Assembly: GCA_050250255.1 (NCBI GenBank)
Contig: JBFWOZ010000001.1
Location: forward strand, 1-64,000
Reading direction: 5' to 3'
DNA length: 64,000 nucleotides
From: Bdellovibrionales bacterium
GTDB taxonomy: Bacteria; Bdellovibrionota; Bdellovibrionia; Bdellovibrionales; DASUEL01
Positions 144 through 11,680 of the stretch are shown here, piece by piece. The position numbers were made by a program, and so were the translations under genes. The first letter of the stretch is position 1. Each line of letters begins with the position of its first letter. The notes beneath the pieces are model-generated. The model saw only the letters and a program-made list of their open reading frames with translations, ran no database searches and was not told the origin of the DNA.

Positions 144-821
144 ATGTTTGTAAAAGTCGCACACAAATCAGAAGCAGATTCTCTCTATCAAGCGGTGATT
201 GATCAGAAGCGTCCTTTACAAATTCAATTATCTAATAAAAAAATTGTAACGGCTAAAGCCATTGAGAGACTGGGACAAGATCTTAAGCTCAACATCGCCT
301 ATATCGAACAGTTTCGTGGAGACCAAGATGTGACGGTGTCTTTTTCTGTCGGAGAAGACATTTTATTTTTAAAGAGTCATATCGTGGATAAAGGAAATCA
401 TTATCTACTCAACATTGCTTCGGGACTTCATAAGCTACAGAGACGCGGAAGTTTTCGTCTGACGGTTCCTGAAAACATGGATGCCAAAATCAAATTTGAT
501 CCCATAAAAGGAACAGAATTCAAAAAGCCTTTTCACCTTTCCAATATTAGTGGGGGCGGCTTGGGAGTAGAGTTACCGCTGGCTCATCGAGATCTTTTTA
601 AGAAAGAAGATCTTGTGGAATTCCAGTTGGAATTGACAGGTGAGTTTAATAAAAAAGTCTCAGGCCGAATCAGACTCGTAGCTGACTCGAAAGAAGATCC
701 CACAAAAAAGTTTCGTTTAGGAATCCAATTCGAAGGACTCAAGAAGAACGACGAAGAAAAGCTCACGCAACTAATCACCAATCTTTATCGTCGTTTCTTT
801 CTTGCTTCGAGATTTTCTTAA
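144..821 (+). CDS. PilZ-domain flagellar brake-like protein (YcgR family)
   Basis: QRRGSFR (RxxxR) and NISGGG (D/NxSxxG) c-di-GMP-binding motifs; adjacent to flagellins. Confidence 0.85.
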   Translation: MFVKVAHKSEADSLYQAVIDQKRPLQIQLSNKKIVTAKAIERLGQDLKLNIAYIEQFRGDQDVTVSFSVGEDILFLKSHIVDKGNHYLLNIASGLHKLQRRGSFRLTVPENMDAKIKFDPIKGTEFKKPFHLSNISGGGLGVELPLAHRDLFKKEDLVEFQLELTGEFNKKVSGRIRLVADSKEDPTKKFRLGIQFEGLKKNDEEKLTQLITNLYRRFFLASRFS

Positions 822-834
822 TTTACCCGTTTGG

Positions 835-941
835 GGTTGGAGGTTTGAGGTTTATCGTTTGAGGTTCGAGGTCTAGGTTTGAGGTTTGAAAACCTTAAAC
901 GGTACCCCAAACCTCAAACGATAAACCTCAAACCTCCAACC
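835..941. repeat. palindromic element built of GAGGTTT-type heptamers (32-bp perfect inverted repeat)
   Basis: 835-866 GGTTGGAGGTTTGAGGTTTATCGTTTGAGGTT is the exact reverse complement of 910-941; related copy at 38237-38384. Confidence 0.9.
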
Positions 942-1032
942 GAAACCGTCTCATAACAAGAAACTCTCGAAGCCCTCCTAAAACCAAAATTAAAAAATTA
1001 ACAATTAATTTCAAATACTTAACGCTTTGTGC

Positions 1033-1059
1033 TAAAGTTATTGCGCTATGCGCCGAAGA
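1033..1059 (+). promoter_or_regulatory. sigma28 (FliA) promoter of flagellin 1
   Basis: TAAA-N15-GCCGAAGA vs consensus TAAA-N15-GCCGATAA; implies TSS near 1066. Confidence 0.8.
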
Positions 1060-1146
1060 GTTCCATGACGGCTGATATGTTTTGAAAATTTAATTGTGGG
1101 CGACGACTGAATCACAGTCTCTTGATGAGACTTGAGGAGGTGTCCA

Positions 1147-1980
1147 ATGCCTTTACGTATTTCAACCAACCTGTCGAGCATTTCTGCTCAACGGCACTTA
1201 TCCAAATCCCAGGAGAGAGCGGAGCATTCCCTCAAAGCACTCGCTTCGGGTTCACGTATTGTGAGCGCGGGCGACGATGCGGCTGGGTTAGCAATCAGTG
1301 AGACGCTTCGTGGGCAACTCTCTGGTTTGCGCCAATCACGCATAAATGCTGAAAACGAAGTTTCTTTGATTCAGGTCGCTGAGGGTGGGCTTAACGAACA
1401 AAACAATATCCTTATTCGTTTACTCGAATTGGGAATTCAAGCGGCGAGCGATACTGTTTCAGACCGAGAAAGAGAATATTTAGATAAAGAATTCTCAAGC
1501 TTGGTGGAAGAATTAGATCGTATTGCGCTGACAACAACCTTCGGGAACAAAGCCCTTCTTCAAGGGACAGGGGAACAATTTGAATTCCAGATTGGACCTG
1601 ATAGTGGACCCGAGAGTGTTGTGAGTTATGTGCTTGATTCTGATTCGCGTGCTGACACTTTAGGTGTTGCGGGTCTTACGGTTGTGGATCAAAGTGATGC
1701 ACGTTCGAGTCTTTCGAGTATTGATGATGCGATCGATAGAATCTCAGAAATTCGTGCGGACTTTGGTGCTTTCCAAAGCCGCTTTCATGCAGCAGCTAGT
1801 AACTTGGATATTCAATATGAGAATATCGCTGCGGCTCGTGCTCGCATCTATGATGTGGACGTAGCCCATGAAACTTCGGAGTTATCTGCTGCGCAGATCA
1901 CTCAAGAGGCAGGCATCGCGGTTCTTGCTCAAGCGAACCAAATGCCGATGAGAGCCAGTCGTCTCATTAATCTGGTATAA
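1147..1980 (+). CDS. fliC: flagellin (fla1, more divergent paralog)
   Basis: MPLRISTN...LASGSRI..AGDDAAGLAISE N-terminus, VLAQANQ C-terminus; SD GAGGAGG at 1134-1140 before ATG 1147. Confidence 0.95.
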   Translation: MPLRISTNLSSISAQRHLSKSQERAEHSLKALASGSRIVSAGDDAAGLAISETLRGQLSGLRQSRINAENEVSLIQVAEGGLNEQNNILIRLLELGIQAASDTVSDREREYLDKEFSSLVEELDRIALTTTFGNKALLQGTGEQFEFQIGPDSGPESVVSYVLDSDSRADTLGVAGLTVVDQSDARSSLSSIDDAIDRISEIRADFGAFQSRFHAAASNLDIQYENIAAARARIYDVDVAHETSELSAAQITQEAGIAVLAQANQMPMRASRLINLV

Positions 1981-1993
1981 GAAACCCATCAAG

Positions 1994-2017
1994 AGGCCCC
2001 CCAAAAGGGGCCTTTTT
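1994..2017 (+). terminator. intrinsic terminator after fla1
   Basis: AGGCCCC-ccaaaa-GGGGCCT followed by T run. Confidence 0.8.
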
Positions 2018-2130
2018 CGTGAGCTCCGTCCCCAAAACCTAGACTTTCATCTAAATATTTTTTATTTGGCGTTTTTGAATAAAAACAAGCACAAGACGCA
2101 TCGCGCCCTAACTCCAACTAGACCTTTGGC

Positions 2131-2157
2131 TAAAGTTTCCTAGACCAAGGCCGAGAA
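2131..2157 (+). promoter_or_regulatory. sigma28 promoter of flagellin 2
   Basis: TAAA-N15-GCCGAGAA; implies TSS near 2164 and a ~200-nt leader. Confidence 0.8.
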
Positions 2158-2163
2158 GTTTCA

Positions 2164-2363
2164 TGAACACGTTGGAGCATCGGGAAGTAGAAACATATCA
2201 GCCGTCACTGAAATGTTTTTTGCTGACTGATCATTAAGTCAAAAAAAGCAATTTCGCTTTTCTCTTAATCTTCCAACAGACATTTTTAACGAGCTATGAA
2301 GGCACTCGCTGTAGGGCGCGGGTTTATGACACCAAGGATTTGGAACGTCAGTTGGAGGCTACT
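2164..2363 (+). promoter_or_regulatory. structured 5' leader of fla2 (antisense segments, anti-SD, CsrA-like site)
   Basis: Hairpin AAACAT-A-TCAG-ccgtca-CTGA-A-ATGTTT at 2191-2218; anti-SD 2270-2281; CCAAGGATTTGG at 2332-2343. Confidence 0.6.
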
Positions 2364-3188
2364 ATGGGCTTAAGAATTAATACGAATATCTCTTCGATCA
2401 ATGCGCAGAGACAGTTAGGAAAGCAACAGGCAAGAGCAGAGCATGCTTTGCAAGCGTTGTCTTCAGGAAGTCGAATCGTACAAGCAGCAGATGATGCCGC
2501 TGGTCTCTCGATTTCAGAAAACATCAAAGGACAAACTCGAGGTTTAAAGGCCGCACGCGGTAACGCCTACAACGCGGTTTCTCTCGTACAAGTTTCTGAG
2601 GGTGGTTTGTCAGAAATCAATAACATCTTAATTCGTTTACGTGAATTGGGTGTACAAGCAGCCAGCGATAACATTGGTGAAGTGGAACGCGGATTCCTCA
2701 ATCAAGAAGCGGTGCAGTTAGTACAAGAAGCGGATCGTATTGCGAAAACAACTCGATTCGGTAACAGAACACTTCTTGATGGTTCTGGAGAGCAATTAGA
2801 GTTCCACGTTGGACCATACGCCGGTGACGAAAACGTGATCAGATATCAAATCACAGCCGATGCAACAGGTGAAAAACTTGGTTACAATGGCATCACTGTT
2901 GATACAAAAGACTCAGCAAGACAGACGCTTGAAGCAGTGGACGAAGCATTAACTCAATTGGGTTCTATGCGCGCTGACTTCGGTGCCGTGCAAAGTCGAT
3001 TGAATACTACAGTGTCGAACTTAGACATTCAGTACGAAAACTTAAGTGCTGCGAACTCTCGTATCCGAGATGCTGATATCGCCTTCGAATCTTCAGAGGC
3101 CGCAGCAGCGACAGTACTACAAAACGCTTCGATCGGAGTTTTGGCTCAAGCGAACTCGATCCCATCGCAAGCTTTAAAATTATTGTAA
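2364..3188 (+). CDS. fliC: flagellin (fla2)
   Basis: MGLRINTN...LSSGSRIVQAADDAAGL; NLSAANSRIRDAD; SD GGAGG before ATG 2364. Confidence 0.97.
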   Translation: MGLRINTNISSINAQRQLGKQQARAEHALQALSSGSRIVQAADDAAGLSISENIKGQTRGLKAARGNAYNAVSLVQVSEGGLSEINNILIRLRELGVQAASDNIGEVERGFLNQEAVQLVQEADRIAKTTRFGNRTLLDGSGEQLEFHVGPYAGDENVIRYQITADATGEKLGYNGITVDTKDSARQTLEAVDEALTQLGSMRADFGAVQSRLNTTVSNLDIQYENLSAANSRIRDADIAFESSEAAAATVLQNASIGVLAQANSIPSQALKLL

Positions 3189-3197
3189 TAAAAGAGG

Positions 3198-3221
3198 CTC
3201 CTGCATCAGTGCGGGAGTTTT
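3198..3221 (+). terminator. weak terminator-like hairpin after fla2
   Basis: CTCCTGCA-tcag-TGCGGGAG followed by only four T. Confidence 0.55.
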
Positions 3222-3255
3222 CAAAAGTTAGATATGAACAAGTTATAAGATAAGG

Positions 3256-3372
3256 TAGCGCAAGAGTGAGCAACTAGGAAACGTCGTCGCCCACAAACCG
3301 ATGCAACTTAGTCACTCGAATGTTACTCTTAAGCCCACCCCGGCAGTGTCAAAGCTCCGGGGTTTTTTATTT
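3256..3372 (+). ncRNA. candidate small RNA or fla2 3' UTR extension carrying anti-fla1 and anti-fla2 segments
   Basis: Stem AAGAGTGA(3262-69)/TTACTCTT(3323-30) encloses GTCGTCGCCCACAA, which is antisense to 1094-1107; ends in a +strand terminator CCCCGG..CCGGGG-TTTTTT (3338-3368); 5' end uncertain. Confidence 0.55.
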
Positions 3373-4688
3373 TATGGAGTCGCGGTCGCGGCTTTTACTG
3401 CAGCACCCGTATTTAAATAACCACCCGTTAAAACTTTTCCTTCGAGTTTCGGTGCTTTGATAGCAGTTGCTAAAATAATATCTTTTACTTGTTTCCAATT
3501 GAGCTGCGGATTGGCGCTGTACATGAGTGCAATTGTGCCAGTGACGTGAGGCGCAGCCATAGAAGTTCCTGCAAGATGCTCGTAATAGTATCTGCGTAAT
3601 TGGGAGTGTGTCGGATTATAGGTGCTGTAAATGTGAATTCCTGGTGCAGCGATATCTACAGTTGTGGCGCCTTTGCTGGAAAACCACGTGAGATTTTGTT
3701 TGTTGGAATCAAGAGCGGCGACGCTGATGATGTTTTCGTTGTTATAAGATGCGGGATAAGACGGTGTTTTATCATTATCGCTGCTACTGTTTCCAGCAGC
3801 GGTGACAACAATTGTACCCTTATTTTTTGCATATTCGATGGCATCATAAAAAGTTTGGCTGTATCCATCGCCACCCCAACTACAATTCACCGCTTTCGCA
3901 CCCATTCTTGCTGCATAGAGAACGGTTTTGATTCCATTGTCGATGGTCCCAGATCCGTCTCTATCAAGAAACTTTGTATCTATCAGTGAAACAAGGCCGC
4001 TGACTCCAGAGATTCCTGAATTGTTATCATCACCCACGGCCCCTACGGTTCCACCTACGTGTGTTCCATGGTAATGAGTATCGATTGGGTTATTGATATT
4101 TCCTTCGAAGTTCCATCCGCGAACGTCATCAATAAAACCATTTTGGTCATCATCAATTTTATTAATCGCTTTATTGTTTCCGTTAGTATCTAAACCCATT
4201 TCACCAGGATTTTTCCAAAAGTTTTTCATGAGATCGCCATGGGTCCACATGCCAGTGTCAGAAATCGCAACGGTAATGTCGCGGCTTCCTCTTGTGATTT
4301 CCCAAGCTTCTTGAACTTTGATGGCATCTAATCCCCACATTCCCGTTGATGGGTAGGGGGGAGGAAGAAATGTAGGATCAAATTCTAACTCACCCGCTCG
4401 CACAACGTAGTTGGGTTCTACGTATTCAATGAGTTGAGATAACTCTGAAGCAAGTGGAGAATTTTTTGTCACCACAAGCGGATTTTTATTGGATACCAAC
4501 ACTTGCAACTCTGGAATTTCGGATTCTACCTCTACCCCTAAGCTATTGATAAAGCTTTTAGTACTCATTGCGGACACAGTATTTTTCAGTTTGATGAGAT
4601 ATCCACGATGCTCGAGAGAAGTTGCGTGAGTATTTATTGTGAAAGTGAGAAAAAGAAAAGAAGCGGCAAGCATTCCTAATCGGTTCAT
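3372..4688 (-). CDS. secreted subtilisin-like S8 serine peptidase
   Basis: VAISDTG, HGTHVGG, AAGN, GTSMAAPHV catalytic motifs; signal peptide after ATG 4688. Confidence 0.95.
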   Translation of the reverse strand: MNRLGMLAASFLFLTFTINTHATSLEHRGYLIKLKNTVSAMSTKSFINSLGVEVESEIPELQVLVSNKNPLVVTKNSPLASELSQLIEYVEPNYVVRAGELEFDPTFLPPPYPSTGMWGLDAIKVQEAWEITRGSRDITVAISDTGMWTHGDLMKNFWKNPGEMGLDTNGNNKAINKIDDDQNGFIDDVRGWNFEGNINNPIDTHYHGTHVGGTVGAVGDDNNSGISGVSGLVSLIDTKFLDRDGSGTIDNGIKTVLYAARMGAKAVNCSWGGDGYSQTFYDAIEYAKNKGTIVVTAAGNSSSDNDKTPSYPASYNNENIISVAALDSNKQNLTWFSSKGATTVDIAAPGIHIYSTYNPTHSQLRRYYYEHLAGTSMAAPHVTGTIALMYSANPQLNWKQVKDIILATAIKAPKLEGKVLTGGYLNTGAAVKAATATP

Positions 4689-4857
4689 GAACCCTCCGTG
4701 GCTCTTGATTTCTTTTAAGTTTATCATTTTCAAGAGTGAGGGTTTGTAATGTTTAAAAAGTGAGCACAAGAATCAGTCTAAGGACTTGGGGTCAGTTTGA
4801 TGCTGAGATGATCGTCTAGTTTAAGCACGACGTACATCGTAAGTTTATAGGTAAATT

Positions 4858-4884
4858 TTAAGTTATCTCTTTTTGAGTCGATAA
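4858..4884 (+). promoter_or_regulatory. sigma28-like promoter of the lipoprotein/beta-barrel pair
   Basis: TTAA-N15-GTCGATAA. Confidence 0.6.
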
Positions 4885-4941
4885 GACTTTATGCAAACCC
4901 TCTCATGCGGAGAGCGTTTTAAAGCCAAGGAGCGGCTTATT

Positions 4942-5910
4942 ATGAGTTTCAGTTGGAAGAAATTATTATCCAGCATAATTGCATTGCTGTTATGTGCTTG
5001 TGGTGGGACTCCGTCCGGAGCTCTTTATTATGGAGCGCTTGGTTTTGGTAAACCCAAAATTATTATTTCCAATGCTGACGCCACAGCTCCGGTTCAACAC
5101 ACAATCACAATGTATGATGAAAACGGGACTCTTCTTAAGGTGCTTGCGGACTACACAGATCTAGCAGATCGGCCCCGTGGTTTAACCCTGTGGGGTTCCT
5201 TTAGTTTTCTCGTTCCTATCGAGGGAACAGACCGCATTGATATTGTCGATATTTTTGGGGTGAGAAACACTTGGGCTACGAATGCGCAGTTTACGGGTAA
5301 TATTTTTAAGTCCGTGAATGACTCTAGTGGTAATGTGTATGTTATTGAGACTAATACAATTGAAAGATTTCTGGCGAGTGGAGAAAGAGCTCAGCAGTCG
5401 AGTGCGACTCCTTATATCGCAGCCACACTTGGTACCTGTGTTTTGAGCACACCACGTGGTATGGCGATTGCTCCAACGACCGGTTATTTGGTCGTTTCAA
5501 ATACTGGTAATGATCGAGTGAATATTTATAATGTGAATGCAACTCCCGCAACTTGCGTGAGTTTTAACTCGGCCTCGTACACAACTGCAGATCCATTGCC
5601 AATTCTCACGCATACGAATGGTTCTATGTACATAGGAACTCAAACCGCTGACCTAATTCGAAAAGTCAGTGCAGATGGTGTAACCGTCTCGACGGCTTGG
5701 AGTACAAGTTTGACGGTTATGGGTGATCCCACAGCGATTGCAGAGCTTCCCGATACAAATATTCTTGTAGCTTCAGATCTCACGGATTCAGTAGAAAGAT
5801 TTAGCCTTGATTCGACAGGAAACACTCTTACTCGCGTAGGTAGTGGACCTTTTATTAAGAATGCTTTCACAACTGCAGTTACTGAAATTTTGGTAATACC
5901 AGGAAAATAA
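4942..5910 (+). CDS. putative lipoprotein, beta-propeller (NHL-like) repeats
   Basis: Lipobox LLCAC; repeated PRGL/PRGM/PTAI blade-like motifs; SD AAGGAG. Confidence 0.6.
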   Translation: MSFSWKKLLSSIIALLLCACGGTPSGALYYGALGFGKPKIIISNADATAPVQHTITMYDENGTLLKVLADYTDLADRPRGLTLWGSFSFLVPIEGTDRIDIVDIFGVRNTWATNAQFTGNIFKSVNDSSGNVYVIETNTIERFLASGERAQQSSATPYIAATLGTCVLSTPRGMAIAPTTGYLVVSNTGNDRVNIYNVNATPATCVSFNSASYTTADPLPILTHTNGSMYIGTQTADLIRKVSADGVTVSTAWSTSLTVMGDPTAIAELPDTNILVASDLTDSVERFSLDSTGNTLTRVGSGPFIKNAFTTAVTEILVIPGK

Positions 5911-6576
5911 ATGAAGATTTCTTTTGGGCTTTTAACATTCGTAATTATCTTTGGACTTTTCAGTTCACAGATAGCTTTGGCTCAAAAATCGTCAAAAAAA
6001 GGCAATCGAGATGATCGTGGTTTATCAGCACAAGTAGATTTGGGTTTACCAACGGTGACGATTGAAAATCCAGATTCTTCAATTGCGTACTATACGGGTA
6101 TTGGTGTCACTGGAAGAGGTATTTTACCGTTATTGGATACTAGGTACTTCTCATTCAATCTTGTAGGTAATGCAAAATACTTAGATCTTAAGAACACAGC
6201 GAGTACGGCTTCGCAAAAAGAGATCGCTAACCACATTGGTGCTGGCGGCGGTGTGAGTGTCATGCTCTGGATTTTCTTTTACGGTATCGATTACAACTAT
6301 ATGTTAGCAAGACATTACACGGTAGGTACCTTTTCTCAGGAACTTAATTACAATTATACCTCAGCAGTTACTTATTACGGAGCACAAATAGAATTTGGTC
6401 AGCTTTCACTGGGAGGTGGCGTGAGTATGAACACAGCCACAATTTCGAATGGGGCCACGGACCTCAATATGGACTCACCTTATTCAGAAAAAACGTATTT
6501 CGTTTTTGCTCGCTATTCAACGGGACTGACAGTTCCCCGAATGTTCAAAGCCCTCTTCTCAGACGGCAAAAAATAA
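5911..6576 (+). CDS. putative outer-membrane beta-barrel protein
   Basis: Signal peptide; alternating amphipathic, Gly/Tyr-rich strands; starts immediately after the upstream stop. Confidence 0.55.
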   Translation: MKISFGLLTFVIIFGLFSSQIALAQKSSKKGNRDDRGLSAQVDLGLPTVTIENPDSSIAYYTGIGVTGRGILPLLDTRYFSFNLVGNAKYLDLKNTASTASQKEIANHIGAGGGVSVMLWIFFYGIDYNYMLARHYTVGTFSQELNYNYTSAVTYYGAQIEFGQLSLGGGVSMNTATISNGATDLNMDSPYSEKTYFVFARYSTGLTVPRMFKALFSDGKK

Positions 6577-6758
6577 TTACCACAACAAAGCTTCTGCGTT
6601 CTCGACTCGACTTTGAGTTGTGCAGACCAAGCGCCACCTCGACATTCATCTCATCAAATTCAACGATCTAAGTCTGGTTTTCCCAAACCTACGTCTAGCT
6701 TTTCCTCTGCTAAAGTCTAGTTTCCCCTCAACAAAAGTCCAGATTCACTGGATCAGAC

Positions 6759-6785
6759 TTTAGTCACTCTCGACCTCGCCGAAAG
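6759..6785 (+). promoter_or_regulatory. sigma28-like promoter of flagellin 3
   Basis: TTTA-N15-GCCGAAAG; weaker -35; implies TSS near 6792. Confidence 0.55.
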
Positions 6786-6985
6786 GTTTGGTGTGAGTGC
6801 TGAGAAAACAGCAGCTGAGTGAGAGACGATCTTGACGGAGAAGCTCTCAACAAAAACTCAAATGCTGATTCAAAGTCTCCAACGTGTTTAACAAAAACTT
6901 AGCGCAGGATGCGTAGTCAAATTCGTTCTCGGAGGGGTCTGAGAGCAATGACGGAGAAAGTATTCTCTCAAATGAGGAGGATAAA

Positions 6986-7819
6986 ATGGGTTTCAGAATT
7001 ACGACGAATGTATCGTCAATCAATGCGCAGAGACACTTCGGCGCGAGTCAGAGAGAGATCACAAAAAACTTCGCACAGTTATCATCTGGTAGCCGTATTA
7101 CAAAGGCGGCAGACGATGCAGCAGGATTAGGGATTAGCGAAGGATTACGAGCTCAAATTCGTGGATACGGTCAAGCAAAGCGAAATGCTGCAGATGCCGT
7201 TTCCTTACTTCAAGTTTCTGAAGGCGGTATGGGCGAAGTGAGCAATATCCTCACTCGATTGCGTGAACTCGGTGTTCAAGCCGCTTCTGATACAGTGGGT
7301 GATCGTGAAAGAAATTTCATTGATAAAGAAGTACAGCAACTCAAAGCAGAATTACAACGTATTGCGGAATCGACCCGTTTCGGATCAACAAAACTTCTTG
7401 ATGGATCTGGTGGAGTTTTCGATTTCCAAGTGGATATTAACAATAACGAATTTCAAGATAGAATTTCTTTTAATGCCGGCGCACAAAATGTGACTACGAG
7501 CCAGTTGGGCATTGAAGGCTTAGACTATAATTCCAAAGAGGGCGCTCAAACAGCTCTTGAGACAATCGATGCGGCTCAAGTTCAAGTGAACTCGTACAGA
7601 GCAAACCTTGGTGCGATTCAAAATCGATTGTTCTCCACGCAAGAATATTTGGGAATTGCAGAAGAGAATTTGTCAGCTGCAAACTCTCGAATTCGAGATA
7701 CTGATATCGCTCAGTCAACGGCCGAGCTCACTCGCAATAACATTCTCATGCAAGCAACAACAGGTGTGTTGTCTCAAGCGAATGCGATGCCGAGCATGGC
7801 GCTTAAGTTGATTGGTTAA
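6986..7819 (+). CDS. fliC: flagellin (fla3)
   Basis: MGFRITTN...LSSGSRITKAADDAAGL; RANLGAIQNRL; SD GAGGAGG. Confidence 0.97.
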   Translation: MGFRITTNVSSINAQRHFGASQREITKNFAQLSSGSRITKAADDAAGLGISEGLRAQIRGYGQAKRNAADAVSLLQVSEGGMGEVSNILTRLRELGVQAASDTVGDRERNFIDKEVQQLKAELQRIAESTRFGSTKLLDGSGGVFDFQVDINNNEFQDRISFNAGAQNVTTSQLGIEGLDYNSKEGAQTALETIDAAQVQVNSYRANLGAIQNRLFSTQEYLGIAEENLSAANSRIRDTDIAQSTAELTRNNILMQATTGVLSQANAMPSMALKLIG

Positions 7820-7848
7820 TTTAAAAATAAGTCAAAAAAGCGTTTATA

Positions 7849-7910
7849 TAGACCAGGTACTTATCCTCCCTGGTCTAACCCAGCCCGGAGACATTGTTTC
7901 CGGGATTTTA
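7849..7910 (+). terminator. anti-SD-loop hairpin followed by terminator hairpin after fla3
   Basis: TAGACCAGG-tacttatcctc-CCTGGTCTA (7849-7877), then CCCGGAGAC-att-GTTTCCGGG-atttt. Confidence 0.65.
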
Positions 7911-7985
7911 TAGGGTTCGACTTTGGTAGAGGTTTTGCTCAAAGTATTCAGGATTTAGAGTGTTTGGCCGAAGAGATAAGCGAGT

Positions 7986-8351
7986 ATGAATATCAAATCG
8001 GTGGCTCACAACATTCTACCGCTCGAGATTACAAAGATTCGACGGAGTCAGAGCGAAAAGGCTGGGGATAGAGACCCAAACGCTCAGTCTGACGGCGGTG
8101 GCGGAGACGCAACTAAACGTCATTTATCCGAGGAAGAGATTCAAAAAGCCATTGCTCATCTCAAAGAGCTTAAGGGCGTTAAAGATAATAATTTACAAAT
8201 TCGACTCCACAAAAAAGACGGCATCACGATCGTGTTTGTTGAAGATCATTTGGGAAAAGTGATTCGACGGATTCCCGAAGCCGAGCTCTATCATCTGACC
8301 ACTCAGGATAAGAATACTGAGAAGGGTCATTTACTCAACAAAAGTTTGTAA
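7986..8351 (+). CDS. flaG: FlaG-like flagellar protein
   Basis: GKVIRRIP motif; lies between flagellin and fliD; TCAG-N15-GCCGAAGA promoter at 7948-7974. Confidence 0.75.
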   Translation: MNIKSVAHNILPLEITKIRRSQSEKAGDRDPNAQSDGGGGDATKRHLSEEEIQKAIAHLKELKGVKDNNLQIRLHKKDGITIVFVEDHLGKVIRRIPEAELYHLTTQDKNTEKGHLLNKSL

Positions 8352-8364
8352 TCAAAACAATACC

Positions 8365-8452
8365 TACAGGTTTCTAGGATGCGGGAATCCAGGAATACGG
8401 TATTCTGGAATAACTACTGAATCCCTGTGTTCCGATATCCAGAAAACCTGTA
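8365..8452. repeat. imperfect palindrome with ~8-nt GGAATCCA-like periodicity (copy 1)
   Basis: TACAGGTTTCTAGGAT...ATCCAGAAAACCTGTA; similar to 10045-10143. Confidence 0.7.
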
Positions 8453-8522
8453 TTCATATAAGACATTCCTTTTCGTTTTTCTCGAAAATAAAGTTACTTT
8501 GAGTCAAACATCCATGCCTGTG

Positions 8523-8611: not shown

Positions 8612-9115
8612 CTAATGACTATGCGTTAATCGGTGATGGCCCGCACAAAGGGTGGCAAGATTCTCAAAAGTGTCTTGCCCTCCCTTGCTTTTCGGGATCA
8701 CGTGATGGGTGTGTAGCCATTTTCTTTCTGTGCAACGTACACCTTGTGGATTTTTATATGTGCACTGACCCTGATCACGCCGTTGAACCTGTCTTAAGAC
8801 AGGTTGGTGGGCTCTATGCATCAATTTTACAGCTTTCTGTACAGGATCTTTCTTCTCTAAATAGACATCCAGCAAGGCCTCAAAAGTTTCCTCAAAGTTT
8901 ACATTTTTTTGTTGGCGCTGGGATTCTAGTTCTTGAGCACGTTTGAGTTTTAGGCTCACGACTTCAGAAAATCTAAAATTTCTTTTACATCGAAGATGTA
9001 AGTACACGCGATGCTCATCGACTTGTTGAAGAATATCGATTAGATCACTCTCGGACTTGCGAAATCGTCCAGCTACTTCGAGAGCTTTTTCGTGAATTTG
9101 CATATGTTTTGTCAT
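8612..9115 (-). CDS. HNH endonuclease, probably internally deleted
   Basis: RDQGQC..C..LHTHHVIPKSKGG..ENLATLCAGHH HNH motif. Confidence 0.8.
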   Translation of the reverse strand: MTKHMQIHEKALEVAGRFRKSESDLIDILQQVDEHRVYLHLRCKRNFRFSEVVSLKLKRAQELESQRQQKNVNFEETFEALLDVYLEKKDPVQKAVKLMHRAHQPVLRQVQRRDQGQCTYKNPQGVRCTERKWLHTHHVIPKSKGGQDTFENLATLCAGHHRLTHSH

Positions 9116-10002: not shown

Positions 10003-10044
10003 CTCGCTTATACAGACAAACATCTTGCAGCTCAGACAAGACCA

Positions 10045-10143
10045 TACCGGTTTTCTAGGATACCGGAATCCAAGAACACGGTTATCCGGTAGTTATTCGG
10101 GATAACATGTATCCCTAGATTCCTGTATCCCCGAAACCCAGTA
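10045..10143. repeat. imperfect palindrome with ~8-nt periodicity (copy 2)
   Basis: GGTTTTCTAGGATACCGGAATCCAAGAACACGGT resembles 8369-8401 GGTTTCTAGGATGCGGGAATCCAGGAATACGGT. Confidence 0.7.
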
Positions 10144-10279
10144 GTGTGAGGGTTTGTCTTCAGACCTTCGCCCATAATCACCAGACTTTTTTGCCTATCT
10201 GCTTAGGTCCATTGCCATATTATTGGCTCACGGTGTCTCGTTTTCTTTTGGGAGAATAAAAGGGAATAGGAGGCTCTCT

Positions 10280-11680
10280 TTGGCAATTTCATTTGGAGGA
10301 ATCAATACAGGATTACCACCAAACCTCGTGGAACAATTGGTCCAAGTGGAGCGTCAACCTATCAAAACGATCGAAGCTAAAAAAGCGAAAACCGAAAACA
10401 AACTCAAGCTTGTGACTGATCTCGATACAAAACTTCGTGGCATGTTAGGAACTATTCGTGATCTCGCGGGCTCTGGAGGTTTCAACGACATCAAACTTCT
10501 TTCTGGAGATGCCAGTGTTGTTGATGGGGCGGTCGATCCAAAAGAATCCATTAAAGGAAGCTGGAGTGTAGAAGTTATTGAGCTAGCACAAAAAGCTGCG
10601 GCGATTTCTAACGGTTTTCCAGACAAAGATAAAACAGAACTTGGTGTTGGTTATTTCAAGTTTGATACTCTTGAAGGTACCAAAGAAGTTTATCTAAGTG
10701 GTGGAAACAGCACTTTAGAAGCCGCCGCGAAAGCCATCAATGCGGCTGAAGTAGGCATGCAAGCCTCTGTGATCAAAGACTCTCGATATCCTGATGCTCC
10801 TTATCGCCTCGTGGTTGCGGGAGCCTCAGTGGGTGGCGAAAATCAAGTGAGTTATCCACAGCTTTACTTTCTAGATGGAGATCAGGATTTTTTCTTCGAG
10901 GAAGAAAAATCAGCTAAGAACGGAAAAGTAAAAGTTGATGGTATCGAGTTTGAAGTCACGGACAATCAAATCAAAGACATTATCCCCGGAGTCACTCTCG
11001 ATATTAAACAGGCAGCTCCAGGCCGACCGATCAACGTTAGCGTTAAAGAGGATCGTGAAGTCGTTAGCGGTAAAATTAAATCCTTTGTGGATACGGCAAA
11101 CGAAGTTCTGAGCTTTATTCAAGGTCAAAACAAACTTAGCGAGAAGAGCGATACCTCATCTACCTTAGGAGGCGATAGTCTTCTGCGCTCTGTAGAACAA
11201 AGATTAAGAAGCCTTATTCAAGATAGACAGTATGGAACTGGTGGGGTGATCACTTCTCTGAATCAGCTAGGAATTACTTTTAACAGAGGCGGTACTTTAG
11301 ATTTTGATCAGGAAAAATTCACATCCGCACTTTCAAAAGATCCAAATGACGTCAGAAATTTCCTTGTGGGCGACGGCGGAACCGTAGGATTTATTCCTCG
11401 GCTAAGAAACACAATTAACGTTCTGACGGACGGTGCTTTTGGAGCGGTCACGCAGAGAAAACGCGGGCTCGAAAATAACATTAAACAGGCCGATGATCGA
11501 ATTGAAACAATGGAGCGTCAGATCGGTCGAAGAGAGCAGGCGTTAAAGCGGCAGTTTGCAAATTTAGAGCAAACAATGTCCCGTTTAAAGTCACAAGGCT
11601 CTTATCTACAATCAAGAATGGGTGGCGGTGGAATGGGTGATATGAACTTTGGTGGTATGTCAGGTGCAGGTGGACAATGA
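10280..11680 (+). CDS. fliD: flagellar filament cap protein
   Basis: ISFGGINTGL N-terminus, LNQLGITF..GTLDFD, LKRQFANLEQTMSRLKSQ; TTG start after GGAGG. Confidence 0.95.
   Translation: MAISFGGINTGLPPNLVEQLVQVERQPIKTIEAKKAKTENKLKLVTDLDTKLRGMLGTIRDLAGSGGFNDIKLLSGDASVVDGAVDPKESIKGSWSVEVIELAQKAAAISNGFPDKDKTELGVGYFKFDTLEGTKEVYLSGGNSTLEAAAKAINAAEVGMQASVIKDSRYPDAPYRLVVAGASVGGENQVSYPQLYFLDGDQDFFFEEEKSAKNGKVKVDGIEFEVTDNQIKDIIPGVTLDIKQAAPGRPINVSVKEDREVVSGKIKSFVDTANEVLSFIQGQNKLSEKSDTSSTLGGDSLLRSVEQRLRSLIQDRQYGTGGVITSLNQLGITFNRGGTLDFDQEKFTSALSKDPNDVRNFLVGDGGTVGFIPRLRNTINVLTDGAFGAVTQRKRGLENNIKQADDRIETMERQIGRREQALKRQFANLEQTMSRLKSQGSYLQSRMGGGGMGDMNFGGMSGAGGQ

Follow-up and report, generated by a model that had tools for sequence, protein, structure and literature searches.

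Predicted base pairing among the untranslated regions of three flagellin genes in Bdellovibrionales

Repression of a flagellin by RNA from a sister flagellin gene has been described in Vibrio, where FlaX acts partly via upstream standby sites (PMC11879080). A different architecture is provided by RNA-OUT of IS10, which represses through a loop that captures the 5' end of its target, with cleavage by RNase III (PMC4737173). In Bdellovibrio bacteriovorus, the flagellar filament is made of blocks of near-identical flagellins in the fixed order FliC3, 5, 1, 2, 6; FliC1 thus precedes FliC2, which is a minor component, and the accessible part of the study gives no mechanism for this order (PMC2791853). 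For strain HD100, Bd0604 (fliC1) occupies 562130-562954 and is 825 nt long, Bd0606, Bd3052 and Bd3342 being 834 nt each, and attack-phase RNA reaches about 12,000 RPKM for fliC1 versus about 1,900 for fliC2 (PMC3627812). The same source maps a leader of 164 nt for Bd0606 and lists two small RNAs beside Bd0604. APsRNA3 (128 nt, with a FliA promoter, 14,726 RPKM in the attack phase) starts 276 nt before the gene, and APsRNA4 (98 nt, 3,500 RPKM), for which a FliA promoter is not marked, begins 30 nt beyond the stop codon of the gene. In the accessible text of PMC3627812, neither RNA is given targets, a link to flagellin or homology outside B. bacteriovorus.

The window analysed here is a stretch of 64,000 nt from a Bdellovibrionales bacterium (GCA_050250255.1, contig JBFWOZ010000001.1, positions 1-64,000 of the forward strand), whose 3.09-Mb, 99% complete genome carries six flagellin genes; the promoters, pairing sites and flagellin genes described below lie on the forward strand. 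The gene order is a PilZ gene, fla1, fla2, a subtilase gene, two other genes, fla3, flaG, fliD and fliS. Relatives recovered by protein searches carry Bdellovibrionales names. In a FastTree tree of 224 flagellin rows, fla1 belongs to one clade (type A), fla2 to its sister clade (type B), and the remainder include fla3 (type C).

Each of the three genes is preceded by a sigma28 (FliA)-type promoter. That of fla1 (1033..1059) has boxes at 1033-1037 and 1052-1059, the latter being the -10 box recognised in the sequence-only reading of this DNA, and its counterpart is found in 61 fla1 leaders. The coding sequence (1147..1980, Shine-Dalgarno (SD) sequence at 1134-1140) is followed by a terminator-like hairpin and T-run at 1995..2017, which a simple scanner did not report; a similar feature stands behind 35 of 63 fla1 genes. 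The fla2 promoter (2131..2157; predicted +1 at G2165) precedes a coding sequence at 2364..3188, and the fla3 promoter (6759..6785; predicted +1 at 6793) a coding sequence at 6986..7819, with flaG, fliD and fliS beyond it. A scanner for sigma70 promoters and terminators returned nothing relevant on the locus.

Several other features of the region deserve mention. The PilZ-domain gene (144-821) directly upstream of fla1 is a possible link between c-di-GMP and motility. Between it and the fla1 promoter, 828-948 forms a long hairpin with 45-nt arms; it is a repeated palindromic element, BLAST finding 25 pieces of related sequence at other places in the genome, and it gave rise to the sub-threshold miRNA hits of the Rfam scan described below. 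The promoter spacers carry class-specific words: a CTAGAC-like word before fla2 (window 2118-2147) in 103 of 121 loci, often with a second copy 22-23 nt upstream, and an ACGC/ATGC-like word before fla1 (window 1020-1046) in 59 of 61, which suggests separate transcription-factor inputs for the two genes. Between flaG and fliD, two genes, one for an HNH protein (8612-9115) and one for a redoxin, are enclosed by related repeats at 8361-8460 and 10036-10150, and similar repeats occur as paired copies about 100 nt apart on three other contigs (C29, C30 and C39); those in the window are possibly the ends of a small mobile element. Within fla1, five single-base differences in 1343-1424 separate the window from contigs of sequencing runs X1 and X2, reflecting either strain variation or an assembly difference. 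Runs X2 and X3 contain only small shares of the sequence, and none of the runs listed for the organism is of RNA.

The 5' domain of the fla2 leader (2165..2277) is predicted to consist of a free 5' tail, a closing stem P1 (2171-2177 with 2271-2277) and two hairpins, H1 (2179..2231) and H2 (2233..2269). H1 holds an antisense strand at 2191-2206, a loop at 2202-2207 and a displaced arm from 2208, and it is the partner in the first of the complementarities, site 1. Here 1066-1082 is the exact reverse complement of 2191-2207, as had been noticed from the sequence. The 17-mer has no further match in the genome at zero or one mismatch and three at two mismatches; for a leader-versus-leader match of this kind the computed chance is about 8e-7 with uniform base use, the earlier estimate having been roughly one in a million. 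The match had been said to begin at the fla1 transcription start. Pairing is indeed tied to the predicted +1, which is placed more probably at G1067, one base downstream of 1066, because HD100 FliA transcripts mostly start at the 11th base after a CCGA/TCGA box; by a count made by eye in HD100 Table S2, this holds for 12 of the first 17 FliA rows with such a box, Bd0606 included. Site 1 proper is therefore 1067..1082, the fla1 mRNA 5' end, and the predicted RNA duplex has 16 Watson-Crick pairs from +1, or 17 pairs with a terminal G-U. Folding reproduces the claimed hairpin: its loop, CCGTCA, occupies 2202-2207, and its 3' arm is imperfect. In the cofold of the window sequences, invasion of H1 by the fla1 5' end is favoured by 11.5 kcal/mol, and P1 is disrupted. 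The end of site 1 lies 64 nt from the fla1 start, so the ribosome site of fla1 is not covered.

Among relatives, 121 distinct fla2 loci from the order were collected, 62 with fla1 upstream and 61 with both leaders. A site 1 helix of at least nine contiguous pairs from the predicted +1 is present in 57 of the 61; one locus (L228) falls short solely through a mismatch at +1, and in the other three (L031, L056 and L234) the fla1 5' word and H1 have disappeared together. With these three dropped and identical pairs collapsed, 47 haplotype pairs remain, containing 42 different fla1 14-mers. Position +1 is paired in 46 of the 47 and positions +2 to +9 in all of them, through several pair types; pairing falls to 34 at -1 and to 14 at -2, which likewise supports a start at G1067. 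Across +1 to +14 there are 613 Watson-Crick pairs, 22 G-U, 7 A-C and 16 others. The best partner is the cognate leader in 36 of 47 cases, and the cognate mean was reached by none of 20,000 permutations, a value that overstates significance as the genomes are kin. Two genomes outside this set, with fla1 located 7.4 and 7.9 kb upstream, each retain 16 pairs from +1, and in one of them a changed fla1 5' end is mirrored by a changed H1. The geometry is conserved along with the complementarity: fla2 bases facing fla1 +1 to +5 are predicted to be unpaired with probabilities of 0.86-0.97 across the 47 haplotype pairs, those facing +6 to +14 are mostly paired (0.09-0.38), and the H1 stem facing the latter contains a mismatch or bulge in 41 of 47.

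These data bear on two explanations that do without RNA pairing. A perfect 17-bp inverted repeat around one gene might be a DNA inversion site flanking fla1, used for phase variation, but such a reading is barely credible in the face of the comparative evidence. The two genes share a strand in all 62 loci, at distances of 321-7016 nt, the match is anchored at +1 and in a hairpin loop, and G-U mismatches exceed A-C by 22 to 7. A contig from run X1, possibly the source sample, spans 912-3700 in the same orientation, no strand-changing joint is listed, and no recombinase was found among the 12 neighbouring proteins scanned. Alternatively, the words might be binding sites of an RNA- or DNA-binding protein, the complementarity being a by-product of one motif in two orientations. 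A core word common to the H1 and H2 loops, the resemblance of the fla1 5' end to the fla3 loop word, and the presence of CsrA would all fit. It is nevertheless very improbable, since words recognised by a common protein would not be expected to change in step, in one genome after another, across 14-20 bases. The alignment of orthologous leaders proposed in the sequence-only reading as a search for compensatory change uncovered just such covariation, the 42 different fla1 14-mers each being matched by their own H1.

The distribution of H1 follows that of fla1. An H1-like motif is present in 58 of 62 loci with fla1 and in none of 30 loci from a genus-level group, g31, the pattern having been designed after the fla1 loci had been viewed. 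In the g31 genomes, a family-matched query for a fla1 orthologue returned fla2 or nothing in 41 of 41 cases, and in controls the approach found fla1 in five of five, one of these near the cut-off. Judged by these comparisons, loss of fla1 goes with loss of H1; the remainder of the fla2 leader domain is retained in the g31 loci. In the place of the absent H1, leaders L167-L195 of this genus contain one or more CU-rich words resembling an anti-SD. A separate case is L056, where only about 60 nt of the fla2 leader remain, H1 and H2 being deleted and the fla1 5' word lost; there, the site 2 pairing described below is kept with a compensatory change.

The two ends of fla2 have probable counterparts in HD100. 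Orthology of fla2 with Bd0604 (fliC1) and of fla3 with Bd0606 (fliC2) is inferred from length, order and flanking motifs: fla2 and Bd0604 have the same length, 825 nt, and the 164-nt leader of Bd0606 resembles most fla3-type leaders of the g31 group. A protein search for the HD100 orthologue gave no HD100 entry among the 120 matches listed. APsRNA3 and APsRNA4 are located at the 5' and 3' flanks of a fliC1-type gene, as are the two fla2 elements. By eye, the published APsRNA3 starts and ends with the two P1 strands; its H2 loop is of the compensatory type, and it has no H1, whose absence is expected for a lineage lacking fla1. Also by eye, the end of APsRNA4 falls in the 5' arm of the hairpin of the 3' element, the 5' half of the fla2 3' element corresponding to this end. 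From position and these by-eye comparisons of sequence and structure, the fla2 leader domain and 3' element appear to correspond to APsRNA3 and APsRNA4. As both RNAs are expressed in the HD100 attack phase, the counterparts of the fla2 elements would be transcribed and abundant, either as free RNAs or as parts of mRNA.

Downstream of fla2, a strong hairpin and T-run, terminator-like or perhaps a stability element, adjoins the stop codon (3194..3221). Beyond it, the 3' element (3255..3372) is predicted to form a hairpin exposing the seed of site 2 (3283-3296), a single strand carrying site 3 (3327-3337), and a terminator; the fold of 3189-3375 has a z score of -4.0. No sigma70 promoter was found before the element by the scanner. 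With regard to a possible release of the element by RNase E, as for a FlaX-type RNA, an AU-rich stretch precedes the 3' stem in 23 of 63 loci, the element lies no more than 70 nt from the stop codon in 15 of 109, and a gene for RNase E/G is present.

At site 2, a 14-nt segment of the fla1 leader (1094..1107) is complementary to the loop at 3283-3296. The mean cognate run was 11.7 versus 8.7 in the first 23 pairs, and the duplex is worth -12 kcal/mol or better in 56 of 59 loci. It is absent from the minimum-energy cofold of the window, a model to which loop kissing is foreign. Overlap with the ribosome site of fla1 was seen in 0 of 56 loci. The 3' loop is also kept in 39 of the 49 cases in which the locus showed no fla1. 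A site 2-type word recurs in the leader of fla2 itself in 42 of 121 loci, often over the SD (L040, L048, L205, L206, L210 and L225 are examples). Within the fliD coding sequence, 11364-11377 shares 13 of 14 positions with the site 2 word, and similar codons occur in 3 of 11 relatives' fliD stretches; the 3' loop may have an additional target here, or the match may be chance, and it was left out of the count of pairings.

Site 3 directs the same element at fla2 itself. The strand 3327-3337 is complementary to 2365-2375, within the region of the fla2 SD and start (2351..2375), and the motif is found in 109 of 121 loci. Codons 2-4 of fla2 are fixed as a single set of triplets in 83 of 121 loci, compared with 9 of the 96 other flagellins that share the MGLR residues and none of 18 fla1 genes. 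Compensatory changes occur in L036, L045, L198, L207 and L209, and in L179, L060 and L231; the fit is cut to about six pairs in nine loci of one genus and broken in a few, such as L038. Pairing here would cover the fla2 start codon, and site 3 therefore reads as repression. The 3' element may thus repress fla2 at two sites, namely site 3 and the site 2-type word of the fla2 leader. A 12-nt match between 1383-1394 of the fla1 coding sequence and 3329-3340 was treated as chance, the codons concerned varying freely among fla1 orthologues.

Two further complementarities connect fla2 to fla3. At site 4, the fla2 5' end (2165..2177) is complementary to the fla3 leader at 6877..6889, with at least ten pairs in 71 of 80 loci compared with 7% in shuffled leaders, about a third of the loci being close kin. 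At site 5, the H2 loop is complementary to a mostly unpaired 7-mer of the fla3 leader in 66 of 80 loci, 51 having the common pair and 11 a compensatory one. H2 is degenerate in the window genome, and the kiss was not recognisable there or in 13 other loci. When the 5' ends of fla3 and three distant flagellins were compared with all leaders in six genomes, no convincing link emerged; the promoter finder missed several leaders. In L040, L046, L048 and L051 the fla3-type gene is duplicated, with a complement of the fla2 5' end in the first copy only, or, in L046, in neither.

Five conserved, covarying complementarities thus join the untranslated regions of fla1, fla2 and fla3 across dozens of genomes, as read from aligned sequences; four of them, and the third flagellin gene, were absent from the sequence-only reading. 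Pairing in trans is the likely mode, as fla2 has its own promoter and a terminator-like hairpin stands behind 35 of 63 fla1 genes. Searches of the genome, which is 99% complete, found no Hfq (PF17209), ProQ (PF04352) or RNase J, the ProQ control being positive in one of 14 genomes, while RNase E/G, RNase III and CsrA are encoded. Separate flagellin transcripts very probably pair in trans, and would do so without Hfq or ProQ.

The consequence of pairing is harder to predict. In the reading preferred here, to which a probability of about 0.5 is assigned, H1 traps the fla1 5' end and each later flagellin damps the earlier one. The fla2 transcript would serve as the hub. Its H1 loop would capture the exposed start of fla1 mRNA, and the hairpin would then open out into the 16-bp duplex, most likely damping fla1. 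H1 and the 3' loop would jointly cover the fla1 5' region, with the result that ribosome standby is blocked or RNase III is recruited. The same 3' element would also mask the first codons of fla2 itself, and the fla3 leader would capture the fla2 5' end, opening P1 and freeing an anti-SD strand. Such a strand is available because the fla2 SD repeats the 5'-end word of fla2, making the 3' strand of P1 able to act as an anti-SD. With the 5' end captured in this way, the fla2 ribosome site becomes harder to open in 27 of 60 loci and easier in 4 (controls were harder in 5), the cost in the window rising from 8.7 to 10.9; the shift is explained by the freed P1 strand, which can pair with the SD. 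Site 3, these folds and the precedents of IS10 and FlaX make damping of the captured, earlier mRNA the favoured direction, at odds close to even, and the folding effects are all of the order of 1 kcal/mol. A point against it is that fliC1 RNA exceeds fliC2 RNA in the HD100 attack phase, when a fla3-type leader could not titrate a fla2-type transcript.

Not every fold points the same way. Blocking of site 1 hardly moves the accessibility of the fla1 ribosome site (11.2 to 11.4). Blocking of site 2 makes it easier to open in 39 of 56 loci and harder in 5, the mean falling from 11.2 to 9.3 against 10.3 for control windows, which points to activation and against damping; in the window itself there is no effect (13.1 to 12.8). 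Pairing might then have a positive effect, with H1 capping the fla1 5' end against decay that depends on that end, the 3' loop opening the ribosome-site stem, and the fla3 leader shielding fla2. RNase E/G, which is present, needs an unpaired 5' end. The start of the duplex at +1 in 46 of 47 haplotype pairs would suit such a cap, and a precedent exists in the blocking of RNase J1 by pairing between the hly 3' UTR and the 5' UTR of prsA2 (PMC8722363). Protection is nonetheless somewhat unlikely: RNase J was not found and RNase III is present, the opening effect is only about 1 kcal/mol beyond control windows and absent in the window, and in certain loci, e.g. L036 and L039, the first several bases of the fla2 5' end are left outside the fla2-fla3 duplex. 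If it were true, fla1 would be licensed only with fla2 RNA present.

The sequence-only reading had instead proposed toehold-mediated strand displacement; taken in full, this would make fla1 mRNA the trigger and the fla2 leader the switch, so that displacement changes fla2 expression. The first part, loop pairing followed by invasion of an imperfect stem, agrees with the conserved geometry, and in the window cofold the invasion is favourable by 11.5 kcal/mol with disruption of P1. A switch that turns fla2 on gained no support from folding: blocking H1 lowers the cost of the fla2 ribosome site by at least 1 kcal/mol in 1 of 31 loci and raises it in 11, with little change in the window (8.7 to 8.5). 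The 11 loci with a raised cost can be counted for a switch of some kind, and an excess of the fla2 5' domain might likewise regulate fla3, APsRNA3 being about 7-fold above fliC2 RNA in the published HD100 values. A switch is still improbable, given that H1 lies at least 130 bases from the fla2 start in the window, that loci without fla1 do without H1 yet keep the remainder of the domain, and that the fla3 ribosome site changes little on fla2 binding (7.4 to 7.1; lower in 11 and higher in 4 of 68 loci). The idea that fla2 binding opens this site was accordingly set aside, such opening not being seen in the folds.

If damping of the earlier mRNA by the later is correct, it could help to set flagellin order and ratio in the filament. 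It is attractive to imagine a chaperone-free mRNA relay from fla1 to fla2 to fla3, operating by 5'-end capture beside transcription and timing the block-wise order of flagellins in the tapered filament, a proposal advanced only tentatively. The position of FliC1 before FliC2 in the B. bacteriovorus filament matches the gene order and does not decide the direction of regulation. One sigma factor is common to these flagellin genes. Were the relay true, its fliC1-fliC2 link would be testable in the laboratory strain, a tractable system in which exact base pairs can be mutated, namely the fliC1 5' end and H2 loop against the fliC2 leader, and the 3' element against the fliC1 start. Predicted targets are now available for two abundant attack-phase RNAs, APsRNA3 and APsRNA4, which previously had none. 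More generally, the locus would offer natural, long, orthogonal and co-evolving mRNA-mRNA duplexes among paralogues, in a lineage in which Hfq and ProQ were not found, and 42 natural variants of a single toehold-hairpin pair.

An Rfam scan of 700-8500 gave no family match, only sub-threshold miRNA hits on the hairpin at 833-952, and a literature search, with subscription journals outside its coverage, found no paper on these pairings or on a chain of 5'-end capture among paralogous mRNAs. The component parts resemble known mechanisms. The sigma28-dependent RNAs UhpU, MotR, FliX and FlgO of E. coli (PMC10578931) are likewise derived from flagellar UTRs and act post-transcriptionally, but as described there they use short Hfq-type seeds on many targets, without long covarying duplexes between paralogous flagellin mRNAs. 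In Listeria monocytogenes, pairing between the hly and prsA2 mRNAs at a 5' UTR couples two genes (PMC8722363); that case is a single pair, protective and dependent on RNase J1, and involves neither paralogues nor a chain. RNA-OUT and RNA-IN of IS10 (PMC4737173) share with H1 and fla1 a loop that takes an unstructured mRNA 5' end, a duplex that spreads through an imperfect stem, and the potential for cutting by RNase III. RNA-OUT, however, is a cis-encoded transcript of the opposite strand that overlies the ribosome site, whereas fla1 and fla2 are separate genes on one strand, compensatory change maintains their complementarity, and the ribosome site lies a long way downstream. FlaX of Vibrio cholerae (PMC11879080) is also a flagellin 3' UTR RNA that pairs with a sister flagellin leader at several sites. 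FlaX represses its own gene in a reporter and alters timing and filament composition, and the fla2 3' element is alike in its predicted self-target. FlaX is bound by ProQ and its action has been shown experimentally, whereas here the pairing is predicted from sequence, in a genome where ProQ and Hfq were not found. The Bdellovibrionales locus would differ further from FlaX in that the 5' leader also provides seeds, and in that mRNA 5' ends are predicted to be captured along a chain of three genes.
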